DNA of 49,713 bases, from IMG/VR virus record IMGVR_UViG_2529292882_000007, one strand, 5' to 3'. Within the stretch, counting starts at the first letter, position 1. Each line of letters begins with the position of its first letter. Origin of the DNA: a virus (Duplodnaviria > Heunggongvirae > Uroviricota > Caudoviricetes). Shown piece by piece: positions 3,979-38,415 of this stretch. The translations under genes were made by a program, and so were the position numbers. The notes under the pieces are model-generated. The model did no database searches, was not told where the DNA came from, and saw nothing but the letters and a program-made list of their open reading frames with translations.

Positions 3979-4319
3979 ATCGGCATTCCTCTGTTAGTAT
4001 TAACAGTGAGAGTTATTTCTAATACACCAACATTATCTGATACTTCATCAACAATATAATTTTTACCGTTGATTTTCATTGACTGGTCTTTGACAGGGAG
4101 AACAGGAAAATCTTTTCTTGAAACAAATAATATTATTTGCCCCTGATTTATTCCCTCTGCAAACTCAGCATATGAGCGTTTATTACGCTCATGAATAAGG
4201 TCTGTATCAATAACGGCAAGGATATCCTTGCCGTCTATGTTATATGTATCGGCAAACTCTTTTTCATTGAGGAATATTGCAGAAATATCTTGCGCTATAA
4301 CCTCTTTGAAGGAGTTCAT
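3975..4319 (-). CDS. Putative head-tail connector (FII-like position)
   Basis: 114-aa ORF, start overlaps stop of upstream gene; position after capsid gene. Confidence 0.35.
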   Translation of the reverse strand: MNSFKEVIAQDISAIFLNEKEFADTYNIDGKDILAVIDTDLIHERNKRSYAEFAEGINQGQIILFVSRKDFPVLPVKDQSMKINGKNYIVDEVSDNVGVLEITLTVNTNRGMPI

Positions 4320-4711: not shown

Positions 4712-5755
4712 TTAAACCACCTTAGCCACCAGATAGGCATCAGCCACACCAGGATTAGGCAGTGGAGATGACTTCATGGCAACATAACGGCCAGCCGGCT
4801 TACGAGTTACCCAGGTGTCTGGAACTCGTGGCGACTCAACAATCGTCAGAGTCTTTTCGGCGTCATCTACAAGCTCTACAGCACCATACAGCATCGTTCC
4901 TCGACCAGGAGAGCCAAAGAGGATCTTATCTTCCGGTACTAATGGTTCTGGTTTTCCTGTTTTATCATTGCGAATAAGTTCGTCGTAACCATAAAAATCG
5001 ACACCTTCAAGATTGCCATAATGAGTTACGCCTTCTTCTAACTCCTTAGGCTCAATATACCCAAGCTCTTTTCGGCGATTATCAAGATATTTAGTTACTG
5101 CTTCATTTTTAACGAAGGCATCAACAACTTTTGCGCCCATTACGGCAACACGAGGTGTAAAACCTGAAGTTAGTGATACCCGACGTTTCCAGTTGCGAAC
5201 ATTGACCAACGGATCTGATTTTGCTGCGCTCCATAAATCATCACCTGTCAGTTCAAGATATGGTTTATCTCCTTCCTCTTCAGGCCAAAAATAAACTGTG
5301 TCATCCACTCCTTCACCAACAATATCAACCTGCCCCGTAAACAAGACTTGTGCACACATCCATTCTTCACGGCGGTTAACCATTTCATCAAGCTCAAGCA
5401 AATCTTTACCTAATTGCGCGGCGGCTCGTTCTGCTGGCGATTTTGCGTTGTAAATATTCTCACCCGGAAGCCTGTTTAAAAGCAGCTCGGCTGTTGTTAC
5501 CAAATCAGGTGCAACAAGTGGTGGCTCCAGAGTTCTCGTTACAAAGCCGCGTCGCTCAACGGTTTTTGAGCCAAAACCTTTACCAACAAACGGAGCCATA
5601 GTACGGCCACCGCGAACAAAATCCAGATCAACTTTCTTTGTATTAAAGGTCTGAACACCAGGAAAAAAGGTACGAAGAAGAAAACGACGAGCCTTGAAAT
5701 TCTGAATAACAGGCTCAAGCATTGTACGTCGTTCAAAAATATCAATATTCGGCAT
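4712..5755 (-). CDS. Major capsid protein (lambda gpE-like)
   Basis: 347-aa ORF after decoration gene; resemblance to lambda E family by memory. Confidence 0.7.
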   Translation of the reverse strand: MPNIDIFERRTMLEPVIQNFKARRFLLRTFFPGVQTFNTKKVDLDFVRGGRTMAPFVGKGFGSKTVERRGFVTRTLEPPLVAPDLVTTAELLLNRLPGENIYNAKSPAERAAAQLGKDLLELDEMVNRREEWMCAQVLFTGQVDIVGEGVDDTVYFWPEEEGDKPYLELTGDDLWSAAKSDPLVNVRNWKRRVSLTSGFTPRVAVMGAKVVDAFVKNEAVTKYLDNRRKELGYIEPKELEEGVTHYGNLEGVDFYGYDELIRNDKTGKPEPLVPEDKILFGSPGRGTMLYGAVELVDDAEKTLTIVESPRVPDTWVTRKPAGRYVAMKSSPLPNPGVADAYLVAKVV

Positions 5756-18398: not shown

Positions 18399-18474
18399 TG
18401 GTGGCCCCTACCGGATTTGAACCGATGACCGTGCGATTATGAGTCGCCTGCTCTAACCACTGAGCTAAGGGGCC
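18399..18474 (-). tRNA. tRNA, anticodon CAU (ileX-like, Ile2/Met type), CCA encoded
   Basis: 76-nt sequence GGCCCCTTAGCTCAGTGGTTAGAGCAGGCGACTCATAATCGC...GGTTCAAATCC...ACCA on minus strand. Confidence 0.9.
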
Positions 18475-27472: not shown

Positions 27473-27590
27473 ACCACGATATGTGGTATTAAAACCACAT
27501 ATCGTGAGTTTTTCAATGGGCGAAACAAAAAATAACCTTCTATTTGTGGTCCACCTCTCGTCTTACCATGTGAAAACCACTAAATGTGGT
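27473..27590. promoter_or_regulatory. Operator cluster: ACCAC-N5-GTGGT palindromes O1 27473..27487, O2 27494..27508 (imperfect), O3 27576..27590
   Basis: Three 15-bp inverted repeats in the divergent intergenic region. Confidence 0.6.
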
Positions 27591-28886: not shown

Positions 28887-29555
28887 ATGGAGTCTCGACA
28901 AATGACTATCTCTGTAGGTATTTTCAACGGAAAAGGCGGCGTAACCAAATCAACAATTGCCCGTGCTTTAGCAGTTGCTTATGCAAAGGCCGGCTGGAAT
29001 GTATGCCTGATCGATATGGATGTGCTTAACGGAACGGTAACGCGTTGGGTACAACGCAGAATGGCCAACAATATCGAACCAGCAATCGCGGCACAGCCGT
29101 GCGGCACACCATCACAAGTCCAGAAAATCATCGAATCAGAAGTATACGACCTGGTTATCGTAGATGGCGGTGCCTACGCATCTGAATCAGTACCGAAGCT
29201 CTCTGAATTTCTGGATATGGTTATTTTGCCAACCAGATTCTCTACCGATGACCTGGAAACCACCGTTAACACAGCTCACGGCATCGTTAAAAAGGGTGTA
29301 CCAATCAAGAAAATTTGCATGGTGTTTTCCGGCGCGGCTGAAAACGAAGCTGACTATATTGAAGCCCAAGAGTACCTGGCTAATACGCCATACTTTGTTG
29401 TCGATAAGTACATTCCCCACAAGCCAGCTCTGAGCAAAGCTCAGGATAAGGGCTTAAGCCTCATTGAGTGCTCATACGTTGCGCCACGCAAAAAGGCAGA
29501 CGACGTTATTCAGGGGATTATCAACCAGCTTGAGGCTCTGACTACTGCCGCGTAA
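28887..29555 (+). CDS. ParA-family partition ATPase (small type Ib, ParF-like); probable start at 28902
   Basis: Deviant Walker A FNGKGGVTKST. Confidence 0.8.
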   Translation: MESRQMTISVGIFNGKGGVTKSTIARALAVAYAKAGWNVCLIDMDVLNGTVTRWVQRRMANNIEPAIAAQPCGTPSQVQKIIESEVYDLVIVDGGAYASESVPKLSEFLDMVILPTRFSTDDLETTVNTAHGIVKKGVPIKKICMVFSGAAENEADYIEAQEYLANTPYFVVDKYIPHKPALSKAQDKGLSLIECSYVAPRKKADDVIQGIINQLEALTTAA

Positions 29556-29598
29556 TATATAATTATAGTTTTATAGATTTATATAAGAGGGGATACAC

Positions 29599-29847
29599 AT
29601 GGCCGCACCATCAAAACCACCAAAGAAGAACAGCAAAGGCGTACCGCCATCGATCGAACAACCGCAGGTTTTCGACCCGACTGAAACGCCAACCAGAACC
29701 AAATCAGGTGGGGCACAAATGGCGTTTAACGTCGACCCTGAATTTAAACGCGAGTACAAAACGTTCGCCAGCTCAATGGATATGTCATTGAAAGAAGTGC
29801 TGACAAAATCTTTTGAGTTACTCAAGGCTCAATACAACCAGAAGTAA
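29599..29847 (+). CDS. Putative ParG-like ribbon-helix-helix centromere-binding protein
   Basis: 82 aa, basic/Pro-rich N-terminal tail, RHH-like C-terminal region; immediately downstream of parA. Confidence 0.45.
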   Translation: MAAPSKPPKKNSKGVPPSIEQPQVFDPTETPTRTKSGGAQMAFNVDPEFKREYKTFASSMDMSLKEVLTKSFELLKAQYNQK

Positions 29848-30069: not shown

Positions 30070-30091
30070 AAAAAAGGCCCCCGAAGGGGCC
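30070..30091. terminator. Hairpin terminator between convergent small genes
   Basis: GGCCCC cgaa GGGGCC stem with flanking A-run/T-run. Confidence 0.55.
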
Positions 30092-30097
30092 TAATCG

Positions 30098-30220
30098 CTA
30101 CTTGCTGCTAATGTTTATCGTCACATTCAGAGCGTTATCAGTAATCTTCCAACCCTCCCCATGTGGCGTAAACAAAGCTCCAGTAACAACGATAAAAATA
30201 CACATGTAGTATTTTTTCAT
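30098..30220 (-). CDS. Small hydrophobic peptide (40 aa)
   Basis: MKKYYMCIFIVVTGALF...; AAGGG SD upstream of ATG 30220; strong terminator downstream. Confidence 0.35.
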   Translation of the reverse strand: MKKYYMCIFIVVTGALFTPHGEGWKITDNALNVTINISSK

Positions 30221-30606
30221 TGTGTGGCCCTTACAGGCCGTTTCACGGCATCCCCACCGACGAAAATGACGCGAGAGCAAGCACGCTGTTTGTGCCTGCG
30301 TGGTACGGCAAGTGGATAATCCTTTCCTGAAAGTCAGTGCCCGGGTGCGAATCGGCGGAAAGGCCCCAAGCCATATTACACGTCATACCCTTCATAATGA
30401 AGGAATAAAAAACGCTTTTATTACATAAGATTACACGTAAATAAGTTAAAAACCTTCATTTTGCATGAGCTAATGAGCTAAATTTTTTTATATGAATAGT
30501 GGACTATTCACCTCAGTTGGGTAAGAATGTAGTTGCTGTTTGTGCTTGCGTGGTTGTATTTATACAACAACGTAATGCTGAAAGGACCGCGAATCCGATC
30601 AGCACG

Positions 30607-30638
30607 AAAGAACCGTCCTCAAAAGGACGGTTTTTTTG
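30607..30638. terminator. Hairpin terminator at 3' end of HTH regulator gene
   Basis: CCGTCCT caaa AGGACGG stem plus T7 run. Confidence 0.5.
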
Positions 30639-31191
30639 TTTCTTCACTCATTAAAAACCGTCCAAGACCTGTTGATGACTCCAGATAATCTCGATTATCC
30701 ATATCAGCACCGTTATCGACCCAATGTCTATATGCTTCATTGCAACAATACATTACAGCAGTTGGAGTAACAGGGAAGCCGCCCCCAAATGAGAATCCCA
30801 TTGAGCTAATGCTAATTCTTTCGAATGGCCTATTTCTCAATGCTTCAAACCCCTTACTGTTGAAGTAACTCAGCATCAGAGGCAAAAGGTTATCCTCGTC
30901 CTGATCGATTGTTCCCGGGAAAAAGTAGTAACCACAGCGATTAAATTCGGGAATCAGTTTTTCTACCAACAACATGAAATTCATTGGGCTAATATTAAGG
31001 GCAGAGCAAGCACCAAAAAGAGCATCAACCGTTAATACAGACTGCCCGTTCTCTATCTTTGTCCATGCGTTTGGTGTTTTTCCAGCCGCTTGAGCCAGCA
31101 CTCCTTGATGCACACCTCTTTCTAGCCTAAGTTCTTTTATGATCATTAGGTGAATTGTTGAAAAACATGAGTTTTTTGACAGTTCAGTCAT
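30619..31191 (-). CDS. HTH-XRE regulator (putative immunity repressor) with unknown C-terminal domain
   Basis: N-terminal HTH-like LERGVHQGVLAQAAGKTPNAWTKIENG; divergent from antirepressor operon. Confidence 0.5.
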   Translation of the reverse strand: MTELSKNSCFSTIHLMIIKELRLERGVHQGVLAQAAGKTPNAWTKIENGQSVLTVDALFGACSALNISPMNFMLLVEKLIPEFNRCGYYFFPGTIDQDEDNLLPLMLSYFNSKGFEALRNRPFERISISSMGFSFGGGFPVTPTAVMYCCNEAYRHWVDNGADMDNRDYLESSTGLGRFLMSEETKKPSF

Positions 31192-31260
31192 TTTTTACCT
31201 CCTCTGCATTAAATTCACTACCAATTTCCATTCTCAAAAGAAACCACATCCAATACAATG

Positions 31261-31388
31261 AAGTTCCCTACATTCAAATCATACCCAAAAAATTGGATTC
31301 GAAGCAACTTTTTTCAACAAAAAATCACGTTAAGTTCCCAATACTCATGTTAAAGTTCCTTACATTCACATAAGATTCCCAAAATTCA
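31261..31388. promoter_or_regulatory. Four direct repeats AAGTTCC-N3-CAWTCA (operator-like array)
   Basis: Repeats at about 31261..31276, 31332..31347, 31353..31368, 31372..31388. Confidence 0.5.
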
Positions 31389-31479
31389 CTATCAAACAAA
31401 TTTGATTGGTCAAATCATGCGCTTAATGAGCAGAAAATTCCGTTTTTCAAACCCACGCTATGTGGTTGTCTCTGTTAAA

Positions 31480-31720
31480 ATCCCGCCGTATTGACATGAA
31501 TGCGCCATTGGTGGACACTTTCCGAGCCGTAGCAAAATCTACGGTCGGGATTAGCCTCCTGAATAACACGATGGCGCATACCGCGTTAGCGGTTTTTTTT
31601 ATGCGTAGAGCACTGTTACGCCCAAATTATGGTGGGTCGTACAGGGGCGGAGAAATCCGCGCCGGTTCGTCATTGTGTCCGGTAAGGCTAACCCTGTACG
31701 GCTCACCACCATTTGATTAG
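31480..31720 (+). ncRNA. Candidate structured regulatory RNA/leader upstream of the small-ORF/antirepressor operon
   Basis: TTGACA at 31491..31496; hairpin plus T8 at 31580..31600; long-range stem 31631..31646 with 31692..31710. Confidence 0.3.
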
Positions 31721-31762
31721 CCTCGAATGGCGGTGATAGTTCCATATACTGGAGATATCACA

Positions 31763-31954
31763 ATGACAAACCTACCCCATGACTATTACGTCAACCTCGT
31801 AAAGATCCTTCTCAAGAAAGCCTCATACGCCGATAAATTCCGCCTGGCTGAAATCATCGAGCGCGAAGCTATGCGCATCGCCAGCAACGATAACGCTGTT
31901 TCTGACGCAAAAATCTCCCTCGTAACCAAAGTAGTTATGGGAGGTGCAAAATGA
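31763..31954 (+). CDS. Small protein upstream of antirepressor (Icd-like position)
   Basis: ATG 31763 with GGAG SD; 63 aa; stop overlaps antirepressor start. Confidence 0.4.
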   Translation: MTNLPHDYYVNLVKILLKKASYADKFRLAEIIEREAMRIASNDNAVSDAKISLVTKVVMGGAK

Positions 31955-33102
31955 AAACGCTTCCGATCCTTAACACCCTACAGCCTATCCTGCATAATCA
32001 GATTCCAGTAATCACAACTGAGCTACTCGCCCGCCTTTATGGAACAGAAGCAATCCGTATACAGCAAAATCACCATGAAAATAAAACTCGGTTCATTGAG
32101 GGGAAGCACTTCTTTAAAGCTGTTGGTGATGAACTCAAAAATTTGCGACTAGTTTTAAACGAGTCACAAAATGAAGTGCAAATTTCCCCCAAAACTCGCT
32201 CTCTCATCCTCTGGACAGAACGCGGGGCTGCACGTCATGCCAAAATGCTTGAAACTAACCAAGCGTGGGATGTGTTCGAACGGCTGGAAGACAGCTATTT
32301 CAACCAGAACGCGCAAACGGCCGCGACCGTTACCGTCTCGCCAGACAATGCTCGTGAGGTTGTCGATACGCTCAACGCCAAACCGATGTTTTACATTAAG
32401 GTGTGCAACAACGAGCCACTCACAACCTCAGCCGATGTTGCCCAGGCATTCAGCACCACAAACAATTCCATCGTTATGGCCATCGATGCGTTACGCATTC
32501 CTCGCACGGCTGCGGCGCGTCACTTCTTTAAAGAACAACGACCGCTGGAAGGAAGCGACCGCGAAATAACAATCTATCGCATGACAAAAGACGGATTTAC
32601 CTTGCTCATGGAGAGCATCGACGGACCAGGCGTAAAAGATATCAAGCTGGCCTACATTGAGGCCTTTAACGCTATCAGCAGCGTGTTAAAAACACAGTAC
32701 GAGCGTGATCTGGCTAAACGACTGTACCAGGAAAAAACGATTATCCGCGCGGCAACAGAGCACAATCGGCTACTAACGGAACCGAACTACAGGAAGGAAC
32801 TAATCAAGGAGTTTGACAAGGCAACGGGGAAAACCAAAGCGGCGCTAAGTCTGCCAGCAATGACTCAGGAAAATGTGATATCAGCCTTACTTCTTGATCT
32901 GCTCAGAAACGCCAGAGCACTGATCAGCTTTGACGAAAACCTGAATCCTCAGCTCAAGCTACTACCACCGACAGGCAAAGTAGTCGACCAGGCAGATCAC
33001 AACAGCATACTCAGCGTACTGGATGCAAACCTACCAGCCAGGACACTACAGGAACTGATAAAGATATCTGCGGATAAACTGGCCGCAGGTGCAAAACCAT
33101 AA
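31951..33102 (+). CDS. Putative antirepressor (Ant-like N-terminal domain)
   Basis: 383 aa; N-terminal region ITTELLARLYGTE...GKHFFKAVG...LWTERGAARHAKMLETNQAW. Confidence 0.45.
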   Translation: MKTLPILNTLQPILHNQIPVITTELLARLYGTEAIRIQQNHHENKTRFIEGKHFFKAVGDELKNLRLVLNESQNEVQISPKTRSLILWTERGAARHAKMLETNQAWDVFERLEDSYFNQNAQTAATVTVSPDNAREVVDTLNAKPMFYIKVCNNEPLTTSADVAQAFSTTNNSIVMAIDALRIPRTAAARHFFKEQRPLEGSDREITIYRMTKDGFTLLMESIDGPGVKDIKLAYIEAFNAISSVLKTQYERDLAKRLYQEKTIIRAATEHNRLLTEPNYRKELIKEFDKATGKTKAALSLPAMTQENVISALLLDLLRNARALISFDENLNPQLKLLPPTGKVVDQADHNSILSVLDANLPARTLQELIKISADKLAAGAKP

Positions 33103-33136
33103 AACAAAGCGCCCGATTTGGGCGCTTCTTCAATTC

Positions 33137-37396: not shown

Positions 37397-38245
37397 TTAA
37401 TGTTGGAGTGATTTCCAGGTCTTTCTTAGCCTGTTATAACGCTGCTCAACGAGGGAGCGTAAATATGCAAGGTCAGCACCAGGATACATGCCATCAGCAA
37501 ATTCCTGGCTAACCTCTCTAGTGATTTGATGACGAAGTTCGGCCTCTCCCTTTTCCTGAACAAGACGCGCAGCTCTCTCCGCTGCTTTCTGTTTTGCCTT
37601 TATCTCTCTGGCCGTCTTCCTCTGACGCCATACATTCTCCATCTGCTCCTGAATAACAATACGCTTATAATCAGCCTCCGTTATCGCTTTTTTAAGCCGT
37701 TCGCTATTCTTCGCATTGAAGTAATTAAGTTTCTGGCTAACCGCACGTCTCCATGCTTGTTCAGTAATACCAACTGTTTCCAGCAGTTGATCACGAATCT
37801 CGATTTTCGCTGGCCAATACTGTTTATTCACCCGATCCCAGCGACGTTCATAATCAATAAAACCTAACTCTTTCAGTTGCGACAACGCCCTTGTACAGCG
37901 CGTTATAGACTTGTTCCCAGCTTCGGATACGGTAGACAGGCCGCAAAAATCAGCCAACGCCTCAGCACTGGCCAGAACCCGCTTAGAAATGATGTTTACA
38001 TGGTGCAAAATCGCAGCAATCACAGCATTAATCGCCCGACGACGATGCTCGTTTATCCGGCGTTTCCGCTCTGACGGTTGATTAACGTAGAACGCAACCT
38101 CACACGTAAGATCACGACCATTAATGCGCTGTAAAGCATCAGATAACACCAGCGGCAGCTTGTGCGTATGGTGCTTTGGAGGCTGGAACTCCGGCGACAA
38201 ATTACAAACGTAAGCTGAACGTAGAGACGGCATTGGTCTATCCAT
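37397..38245 (-). CDS. repA: Replication initiator RepA, IncFII RepA1-like (ORF track extends to alternative start 38389)
   Basis: Segment RRRAINAVIA...GNKSITRCTRALSQLKELGFIDYE resembles IncFII RepA1 RRRAIDALLQ...GKLSITRATRALTFLSELGLITYQ. Confidence 0.7.
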   Translation of the reverse strand: MDRPMPSLRSAYVCNLSPEFQPPKHHTHKLPLVLSDALQRINGRDLTCEVAFYVNQPSERKRRINEHRRRAINAVIAAILHHVNIISKRVLASAEALADFCGLSTVSEAGNKSITRCTRALSQLKELGFIDYERRWDRVNKQYWPAKIEIRDQLLETVGITEQAWRRAVSQKLNYFNAKNSERLKKAITEADYKRIVIQEQMENVWRQRKTAREIKAKQKAAERAARLVQEKGEAELRHQITREVSQEFADGMYPGADLAYLRSLVEQRYNRLRKTWKSLQH

Positions 38246-38289
38246 ATGTTCGCTCTTGCGTCCACGGAAAACCAACGTATAATGGGAGT

Positions 38290-38372
38290 TGTCGAGGCGC
38301 CCATGGTTAGTTGTTGGTTTTCCTTTCCGTGGATGTCGCAAGAAGCCCGCAGATTTATCTGCGGGCTTTTTG
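38290..38372 (+). ncRNA. Predicted CopA-like antisense RNA complementary to the repA leader
   Basis: Promoter -35 TTGCGT 38256..38261, 16-nt spacer, -10 TATAAT 38278..38283; terminator hairpin 38343..38371 with T-run. Confidence 0.5.
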
Positions 38373-38415
38373 TTTCCATATCTGGTCACTTTTCAACCAG
38401 ACACCCACAATCATA

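Follow-up and report, generated by a model that had tools for sequence, protein, structure and literature searches.

In the annotated record of phage P1, the immI region reads, in order, operator Oc4, P2c4, P1c4, the sites a1 and b1, the antisense RNA gene c4, the sites a2 and b2, icd and ant1, with an overlap of 4 nucleotides (nt) between icd and ant1. In P4, CI RNA pairs with the flanking sequences seqA and seqC, with premature termination as the outcome (also described in PMC4825925). In the isrK-orf45-anrP locus of Salmonella Gifsy-1, the leader, a small open reading frame (ORF) and the antirepressor gene are co-transcribed (PMC4825925); the antirepressor requires that the small ORF be translated, and it triggers induction (Hershko-Shalev et al. 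2016, PMC4825925). Pairs of isrK and C4 RNAs also precede ant genes in Shiga toxin (Stx), Klebsiella and other phages, and 266 phage records match. Here we analyse positions 30619 to 33102 of IMGVR_UViG_2529292882_000007, a Caudoviricetes record of 49,713 nt (the window, in its entirety). The region holds a helix-turn-helix (HTH) gene of 190 amino acids (aa; HTH-190), an RNA leader, a 63-aa ORF (orf63) and an antirepressor-like gene (ant), and its host is a phage-plasmid of about 50 kb. We consider it highly probable that the region is a P1-style secondary immunity (immI-type) module, in which a C4 antisense RNA silences the antirepressor. A likeness to immI had been put forward in a first-pass annotation of the DNA and is borne out by the Rfam scores for C4 and isrK, by the order and spacing of the annotated P1 record and by covariation at the target sites. 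The HTH gene, four repeats, hairpin with T8, long-range stem, 63-aa ORF and antirepressor-like gene listed in that annotation are all present in the sequence.

The whole window was scanned with Rfam at curated thresholds, giving four matches, two of which fall within the region. The RNA element, previously left unassigned, belongs to the two curated families concerned, C4 and isrK. The C4 covariance match is full length (model positions 1-87 of 87) with zero non-canonical pairs, and the long-range stem is the C4 closing helix, 24 nt in length, formed by 31623-31646 with 31692-31715. If its ends correspond to those annotated for c4 of P1, the mature C4 RNA would be 80 nt long (31631-31710). The isrK match (RF01394, 31526-31599) scores 65.7 bits against a gathering score of 50 and lies 25 nt from the C4 match. 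A permissive scan also returned the c4-a1b1 family (RF03163), which comprises the a1 and b1 targets of C4, at 31513-31565 with 35.7 bits, below the threshold of 46.7. The leader consists of two hairpins, a single-stranded linker containing b1, and an intrinsic terminator; in the isrK consensus structure a1 sits in the loop of the second hairpin. Folding of 31527-31790 gave -98.6 kcal/mol compared to -74.8 for shuffled sequences (z = -4.8). The interval 31480..31600, where a small RNA had been expected, does hold the IsrK-like leader RNA, but C4 proper lies beyond it. Judged by its sequence, the RNA of this locus is a genuine member of the C4 family, and its leader is of the IsrK type. The isrK match starts at 31526, near the predicted transcription start, and Hafnia and Yersinia relatives have a TTGACx-17-TATAxx promoter at the same place. 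A weak promoter that would overlap that of the operon, TTGTCT-17-TATTGA (31466-94), is no more than conjecture. The LexA box CTGT-N8-ACAG occurs in the window only at 3991 and nowhere near the operon, and the sequence shows no sign of direct SOS control.

The locus is laid out as a1-b1 / c4 / a2-b2 / small ORF / ant. A repeat finder located a 10-nt match between a' of C4 and a1 in the leader (9/10), and the same 10-mer recurs exactly just 3' of C4. The b' loop pairs with b2 at 13 of 14 positions across the start codon of orf63, reaching 31772. Relatives of the locus were gathered by DNA similarity, by exact-protein look-ups of orf63 homologues, and by scans of genome contigs and viral contigs; scans for the 63-aa ORF contributed two loci from species-representative genomes and 15 from viral contigs. 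Among loci in which the 63-aa ORF is preceded by a C4-type RNA, we found 10 distinct a'/b' combinations, built from five a and six b alleles. The a alleles are TTAGCCT, TTGGCGT, TTGGAAC, TTAGCAC and TTCGAAC. Three b alleles lie over the AUG (CACAATGAC, TCATCATGA and TCACCATG) and three lie 23-24 nt upstream of it, beside the Shine-Dalgarno sequence (GAAAACCA, CAAACCA and GTAACCA). A complementarity matrix that allowed G-U pairs proved too noisy to separate cognate from non-cognate partners and was replaced by Watson-Crick matching at homologous positions. By this measure a' has a perfect 7-nt complement at both a1 and a2 in all 10 combinations, and b' has a Watson-Crick complement of 7-13 nt at b2, again in 10 of 10. 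The complement of b' at b1 is 6-8 nt in eight of the combinations and 5 nt in another (the L026 type). The a and b alleles reassort, a = TTGGCGT being seen with four different b alleles. The evidence is comparative and the 10 types are not all independent events; nevertheless, changes that correspond at three distinct sites are difficult to account for without pairing between the elements. Since a1 and b1 covary with C4, they too would pair with it.

We note that gene callers place ORFs across C4: an 86-aa ORF at 31460-31720 (+) in the window, and ORFs at 7147-7434 in L001 (the Yersinia phage type) and 3222-3509 in L003 (K. aerogenes pC161661-2). In relatives the corresponding call is a 95-aa "ash family protein" (Pfam PF10554); PF10554 is recorded in four of five N-terminally extended, 95-aa versions of orf63 and in none of the 63-aa ones. 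The ORFs called across C4 are probably translations of RNA genes. In Erwinia and other relatives (L011, L012, L014, L023 and L034-L037) an RNA of the sRNA-Xcc1 type (RF02221) stands before the 63-aa ORF in place of C4; L034 has both, C4 at 1147-1229 and sRNA-Xcc1 at 1378-1463. It appears that in the sRNA-Xcc1 loci the RNA regulator was swapped and the coupling ORF retained.

The product of orf63 matches phrog_7886 from end to end. Relatives with about 67% identity or more all have 63 aa, and the most divergent one (59%) has 65 aa. Differences at the three codon positions number 9/3/28 against the Hafnia homologue and 7/3/25 against that of Yersinia, so third positions dominate, and synonymous changes exceed replacements against distant homologues. 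On this pattern of substitution, orf63 is a real protein-coding gene. The family is narrow: named members are all from Enterobacterales, and a profile search of 1.8 billion representative proteins returned six representatives and no link to a known family. Icd of P1 was considered as a homologue and rejected (no alignment by BLASTP; hhalign probability 0.3%). The ORF being unrelated to Icd, the cell-division phenotype once proposed for it has no basis. The stop codon of orf63 overlaps the start of ant in an ATGA (31951-54), from which we infer that translation of the two genes is coupled. In relatives, too, orf63 is usually followed by an antirepressor gene with a 4-nt overlap. The family of that antirepressor varies (P22_AR_N, ORF6N or ORF6N+Rha), and in two of the fetched loci (L014 and L016) no antirepressor gene directly follows. 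Because the antirepressor family changes downstream of it, orf63 is tied more tightly to the RNA module than to a particular type of antirepressor. At the least, orf63 serves as the coupling ORF that links C4 to the control of ant; its conserved sequence suggests a further role.

The 383-aa product of ant carries an ORF6N domain (3e-20, 72.6 bits; cut-off 27.8) and a Phage_pRha domain (3.5e-12, 47.2 bits; cut-off 29.9) in Pfam. It is termed an antirepressor here on domain annotation only. P1 Ant1 was tried as a homologue and discarded (best BLASTP E = 6.8).

These elements suggest a mechanism in which the sigma-70 promoter would start transcription near 31526. Many transcripts would stop at the hairpin and U8 run, giving an IsrK-like RNA of about 75 nt that displays a1 in a loop and b1 in a linker. 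Transcripts that read through would carry C4 (~31631-31710), presumably excised and accumulating as in P1. The a' and b' elements of C4 would then pair with a2 and b2 on the same kind of transcript. With b2 masking the AUG and the Shine-Dalgarno sequence already held in a hairpin, orf63 would not be translated. As ant would be reached only by coupled ribosomes through AUGA, Ant would be off, probably reinforced by polarity. Were C4 outnumbered or titrated (after infection, by a burst from the promoter, or by the a1/b1 leader RNA), orf63 and ant would be translated and Ant would inactivate the CI-like repressor encoded elsewhere in the window.

Several points weigh against this picture. The -10 hexamer of the operon promoter, GACACT, is weak. 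In the window's own allele type, b1 offers b' four contiguous Watson-Crick pairs, and 11 only with two G-U pairs. The start site, terminator read-through and C4 processing are taken from analogous systems, and the target of Ant is assumed. As orf63 and Ant are unrelated to Icd and Ant1 of P1, the downstream biology may differ. In Gifsy-1, moreover, the short IsrK activates translation by remodelling the mRNA, and a test of a titration model for the C4-like RNA there (STnc1160) did not support titration (PMC4825925).

The last observations raise the alternative that control is positive and of the Gifsy-1 type, the terminated IsrK-like RNA activating in trans, by mRNA remodelling or by soaking up C4, as the decisive step. 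The leader scores above the isrK gathering cut-off, with matching hairpins and terminator; a1 is placed in a loop and b1 in unpaired linker sequence, where the seeds of a small RNA would be expected. The pairing of a1 with a' (7/7 in all 10 types) and of b1 with b' (6-8 nt in eight) is consistent with selection for C4 pairing, and trans-activation has been demonstrated in Gifsy-1 (PMC4825925). However, in that phage the C4-like RNA and the small ORF overlap, and the pairing that was mapped joins IsrK to orf45, whereas orf63 is separate and downstream; pairing in cis inside the precursor would account for the covariation of a1/b1 just as well. We regard this alternative as a serious possibility, though one on which we would not settle; it is compatible with silencing by C4, the two not being mutually exclusive.

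Alternatively the C4-like RNA might act mainly as in P4, causing premature termination upon pairing with its flanking sites and not a translational block. In P1 the translational block is also followed by termination. In the window, b1 lies 3 nt upstream of the terminator stem and in folds could form the 5' arm of an extended terminator hairpin; as b1 abuts the terminator, a P4-like effect on termination is also possible. The Gifsy-1 authors, too, note a structural similarity of IsrK to P4 seqA (PMC4825925). Against this, b2 lies on the start codon or beside the Shine-Dalgarno sequence in every allele type, a placement that fits a translational block and is not needed by a pure termination device. 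We therefore think it rather unlikely that termination is the main effect.

A third type of control, that of P22 immI with an opposite-strand sar RNA and the Arc and Mnt repressors, shares with this locus only the general theme of a tightly controlled antirepressor. The regulatory RNA here is on the same strand as its target and upstream of it, no minus-strand promoter or terminator was found in 31700-31800, and no Arc/Mnt-like gene is present. Sar is made from the opposite strand, so the comparison with P22 sar/ant drawn in the first-pass annotation fails, and control of the P22 type is the least credible of the alternatives we considered. Silencing by a same-strand C4 RNA remains our preferred reading. 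The positions of the elements discussed above and below are given in Table 1.

Table 1 Features of the immI-type region, of related sites elsewhere in the window, and of DNA upstream of homologous HTH genes
Feature	Position	Strand	Basis or remark
CI-like HTH repressor, 218 aa	27628-28284	+	
ParA and small partner (small ParB)	28887-29847		
XRE-family HTH protein, 190 aa (HTH-190)	30619-31191	minus	Pfam HTH_3 and HTH_31
Insertion/deletion cassette, ~805 base pairs (bp)	30644-31448		most of HTH gene plus 258-bp repeat-bearing intergenic region
Four direct repeats, TGARTNTNRGGAAY	31263-76, 31334-47, 31355-68, 31375-88	minus	
Candidate HTH-gene promoter, TTGATA-17 nt-TATGTG	-35, 31390-95; -10, 31367-72	minus	read by eye
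Palindrome CCACGCTATGTGG (CCAC-GCTAT-GTGG)	31453-65		25 bp upstream of operon -35 hexamer
Operon promoter, TTGACA-17 nt-GACACT (sigma-70)	31491-31519	+	hexamers checked on sequence; inside conserved backbone
IsrK / c4-a1b1-type leader RNA	31526-31600	+	Rfam isrK, fold
a1, TTAGCCT	31551-57	+	complementary to C4 a'
b1, ACACGATGGCG	31566-76	+	complementary to C4 b' if two G-U pairs are allowed
Intrinsic terminator, ACCGC-GUUA-GCGGU + U8	31580-31600	+	stem 31580-31593, T run 31593-31600
C4 antisense RNA (RF01695)	31625-31713	+	Rfam, 70.8 bits vs gathering score 45
C4 b' loop, GTCATTGTG (RNA GUCAUUGUG)	31669-77	+	
C4 a', AGGCTAA (RNA AGGCUAA)	31685-91	+	single-stranded
a2, TTAGCCT	31717-23	+	downstream a' target, just 3' of C4
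Hairpin sequestering Shine-Dalgarno GGAG (31751-54) of orf63	31733-31761	+	repeat finder, folds
b2, CACAATGAC	31759-67	+	b' target; covers AUG (31763-65) of orf63
orf63, 63 aa, phrog_7886	31763-31954	+	PHROG, 4e-47, end-to-end match
Antirepressor-like protein, 383 aa, ORF6N + Rha	31951-33102	+	Pfam; PHROG anti-repressor families
GC-rich closing hairpin ending operon	33106-33127		between convergent genes
IncFII-type RepA	37397-38389	minus	
Further CCAC-N5-GTGG sites	28328		just after repressor gene
	38417		28 bp upstream of repA
	43071		inside gene
Palindrome AGGAAC-ATAAT-GTTCCT	Vibrio (L006), upstream of HTH gene		beside TTGACG-17-TATAGT promoter
Palindrome AGGAAC-AATAA-GTTCC	Deefgea (L008), upstream of HTH gene		
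Six perfect 20-bp tandem repeats, TCTTTTCAGGAACATGCATA	Advenella (L010), upstream of HTH gene, 4746-4866		each with AGGAAC
Unrelated 134-bp intergenic region	Yersinia phage type (L001), upstream of HTH gene		four GGAAY motifs around TTGATA-17-TATAGT

The operon may also be linked to the primary repressor of the element. CCAC-N5-GTGG occurs six times in the window against 0.39 expected. Elements of the form AAACCAC-N5-GTGGT lie between the CI-like repressor gene and the operon divergent from it, at 27474, 27494 and 27577; two are exact copies and that at 27494 is a variant. The palindrome at the head of the immI-type region resembles these elements, is conserved in family members with and without the HTH cassette described below, and sits upstream of the -35 hexamer, not over it. 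We take it, on its sequence, as a candidate operator of the CI-like repressor. By analogy with C1 in P1, the distribution suggests a primary repressor with dispersed operators, one of them at immI. The copy upstream of repA implies that the prophage repressor may also control plasmid replication. LexA/CI-type repressors carry the catalytic motif GDSMxPT. The 218-aa CI-like repressor reads DELMSPT in its place, and Pfam finds no Peptidase_S24 domain in this protein; the altered motif suggests that it may be non-cleavable and dependent on an antirepressor, as in the Gifsy phages.

The first-pass annotation gave control of the antirepressor to HTH-190 and the direct repeats. The HTH gene is indeed divergent from the operon and adjacent to it, and the repeats are real: three match AAGTTCC-N3-xAxTCA exactly (31261, 31332 and 31353) and the fourth needs a one-base shift. 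The motif TGARTNTNRGGAAY has its four matches and no others in the 49.7 kb, compared with 0.08 expected from shuffles, a contrast flattered by the derivation of the motif from the same four copies; homologous loci lend support of an independent kind. Next to repeat 1 is a weak promoter-like site directed rightward, TTCTCA-17-TACAAT (31231-59), and an additional HTH-controlled promoter upstream could feed the operon, compare the two c4 promoters of P1. The repeat nearest the operon, however, stops at 31388, which leaves 103 bp to the -35 hexamer (31491), and a promoter scan gave fewer sites than shuffled sequences. The HTH gene and repeats moreover form a cassette that most family members lack, keeping promoter, RNAs, orf63 and ant. 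In K. aerogenes pC161661-2 and E. coli p142_C (L004), window position 30643 is joined directly to 31449, and conservation is complete in content from the palindrome (31453) on; of 60 plasmid hits, about 45 have 31449 as their first window position. Among 5426 complete E. coli genomes, 74 have the RNA-orf63 module and 21 have the cassette sequence, all 22 cassette matches being on plasmids and none chromosomal. At the left junction (30610-30643) there is a hairpin with a T run, GAACCGTCCT-CAAA-AGGACGGTTTTTTT. The last ~8 codons and stop of the HTH ORF lie inside this backbone terminator, which indicates that the insertion gave the protein its C-terminal tail. In L001 the HTH gene is retained, but next to an intergenic region that is shorter and of another sequence. 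It therefore appears very unlikely that HTH-190 represses the antirepressor operon through the four repeats.

Homologous loci point to a different role for the repeats. Read on the strand of the HTH gene, their core is GGAAC, and it recurs upstream of distant HTH-190 homologues from four additional genera and in either type of intergenic region, among them stand-alone genes in Vibrio, Deefgea and Advenella with no ant operon nearby; the repeats are thus credible operators of the promoter of HTH-190 itself. We note that the Advenella set is an unusually regular operator-like array. Repeat 4 falls within the spacer of the candidate HTH-gene promoter, and the better promoter of L001 has the same layout with GGGAAT in its spacer. 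From these arrangements the four repeats are most likely HTH-190's own operators, and HTH-190 with its repeats is a separate, optional and probably self-regulated cargo cassette. The HTH_3 match of HTH-190 has E = 4e-7 (30.3 bits; cut-off 23). Its homologues form 34 clusters, typically of 165-175 aa; stand-alone proteins of about 170 aa are found in Vibrio, Photobacterium, Deefgea and Advenella, often beside integrases or insertion sequence elements. The C-terminal domain is conserved and the AlphaFold2 model has a predicted local distance difference test (pLDDT) score of 84; matches to folds in the PDB are limited to the HTH domain. The slot just before the isrK/C4 promoter is occupied elsewhere by toxin-antitoxin pairs, namely HigB and an HTH protein (HigBA; Erwinia, L011 2147-2733) or ParDE (Yersinia, L015 2117-2667), and appears to be a preferred site for the insertion of cargo.

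The repeats are direct, 20-21 bp apart, and only 1.4 kb from the ParA/small-ParB pair, features that might befit a partition centromere or replication iterons. The motif, however, is also seen ahead of HTH homologues encoded on chromosomes. Every family member has the par genes and the IncFII-type repA, but the repeats come and go with the HTH gene, which rules out a role in partition or replication for practical purposes. IncFII RepA replicons are not known to use iterons. We accordingly attach next to no probability to either function.

Activation of the antirepressor in trans by the short IsrK of Gifsy-1 makes a decoy function of the leader attractive. In its fullest form the idea is that the terminated IsrK-like RNA serves as a dedicated decoy, titrating C4 by way of a1/b1 in a dose set by the primary repressor at its CCAC-N5-GTGG site, and that the HTH-190 family is a new class of cargo regulators that stand alone, regulate themselves and have an uncharacterised C-terminal fold. 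This conjunction is speculative, and we would sooner doubt it than accept it. If the decoy were real, a fall in primary repression would release a flood of decoy, freeing orf63-ant from C4, and Ant would remove the remaining repressor. The result would be a self-reinforcing RNA-protein switch whose specificity is set combinatorially by reassorting a/b alleles.

The window reads as a complete phage-plasmid-like element, with many ORFs without an assigned function. Its nearest relatives are non-mobilizable plasmids of about 48 kb, mostly from Escherichia (60 PLSDB records, including the plasmid of the reference strain ATCC 25922). The Yersinia pestis phages vB_YpM_39, 41 and 44 are also close, with the matched genes annotated "hypothetical protein", and the closest phage record has a hin-type DNA invertase. 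The literature was searched for a name or study of this phage-plasmid family and nothing specific was found. PADLOC defence-system models gave weak matches only, of generic HTH and ORF6N type, and none of the NCBIfam models scored above cut-offs. Elsewhere in the window a transfer RNA gene lies at 18402-18474 (-) (Rfam tRNA, 67 bits), with a CAU anticodon in the printed alignment. A full-length ryfA RNA is found at 30070-30368 (-) (RF00126, 134.6 bits against 80), between the par genes and the HTH cassette, and L001-L004 and L033 have it as well. It encloses a short hydrophobic ORF on the minus strand (within 30098-30280), and ryfA may be a type I toxin-antitoxin-like stabiliser on the phage-plasmid.

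The analysis proposes a clear regulatory logic, open to test, for phage-plasmids of ~48 kb from E. coli, Yersinia and Klebsiella, a family that is common yet has hardly been annotated. The allele table, with its five a and six b types in reassorted combinations, is a natural experiment on two-site antisense recognition and immunity specificity, and should also be useful in asking what the long-puzzling a1/b1 sites do.

Of the systems introduced at the outset, immI of P1 and P7 is closest. The RNA belongs to the same Rfam family, C4; the order of sites and genes is the same, at similar distances; the two-site, allele-specific recognition parallels P1/P7 heteroimmunity; and both hosts are plasmid prophages. 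There are clear differences from P1. The small ORF is unrelated to Icd and the antirepressor to Ant1. A clear intrinsic terminator ends the leader here and the isrK threshold is reached; the P1 leader itself scores as c4-a1b1 and weakly as isrK (35 bits, below threshold). In the window b2 covers the AUG itself, and the candidate operator is a CCAC-N5-GTGG palindrome in place of the asymmetric C1 operator of P1. Gifsy-1 shares an IsrK-family leader with a terminator, partly read through in that phage, a small upstream ORF before an antirepressor-like gene, and a stable processed RNA (STnc1160) downstream of IsrK. There, orf45 (45 aa) lies within the region of the downstream RNA and activation in trans has been shown, whereas here a separate, conserved 63-aa gene, known from sequence, follows C4. 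Stx-converting, lambdoid and P22-like phages (e.g. VT2-Sakai orf34-ant) have tandem isrK and C4 about 25 nt apart directly before ant, and the N-terminal ORF6N domain of their Ant is 60-67% identical; in these, some 50 nt separate C4 from ant, any ORF in between overlaps the RNA, and the 63-aa gene is missing. P4 resembles the locus in that a processed RNA comes from the leader of its own target operon and is flanked on either side by complementary sites, but there replication genes are controlled, by premature termination, and no antirepressor is involved. The present locus thus extends, and does not change, the picture drawn from P1, P4 and Gifsy-1, to which it adds reassorted specificity alleles, a narrow family of 63-aa coupling proteins and an uncharacterised HTH family with a clear operator motif.

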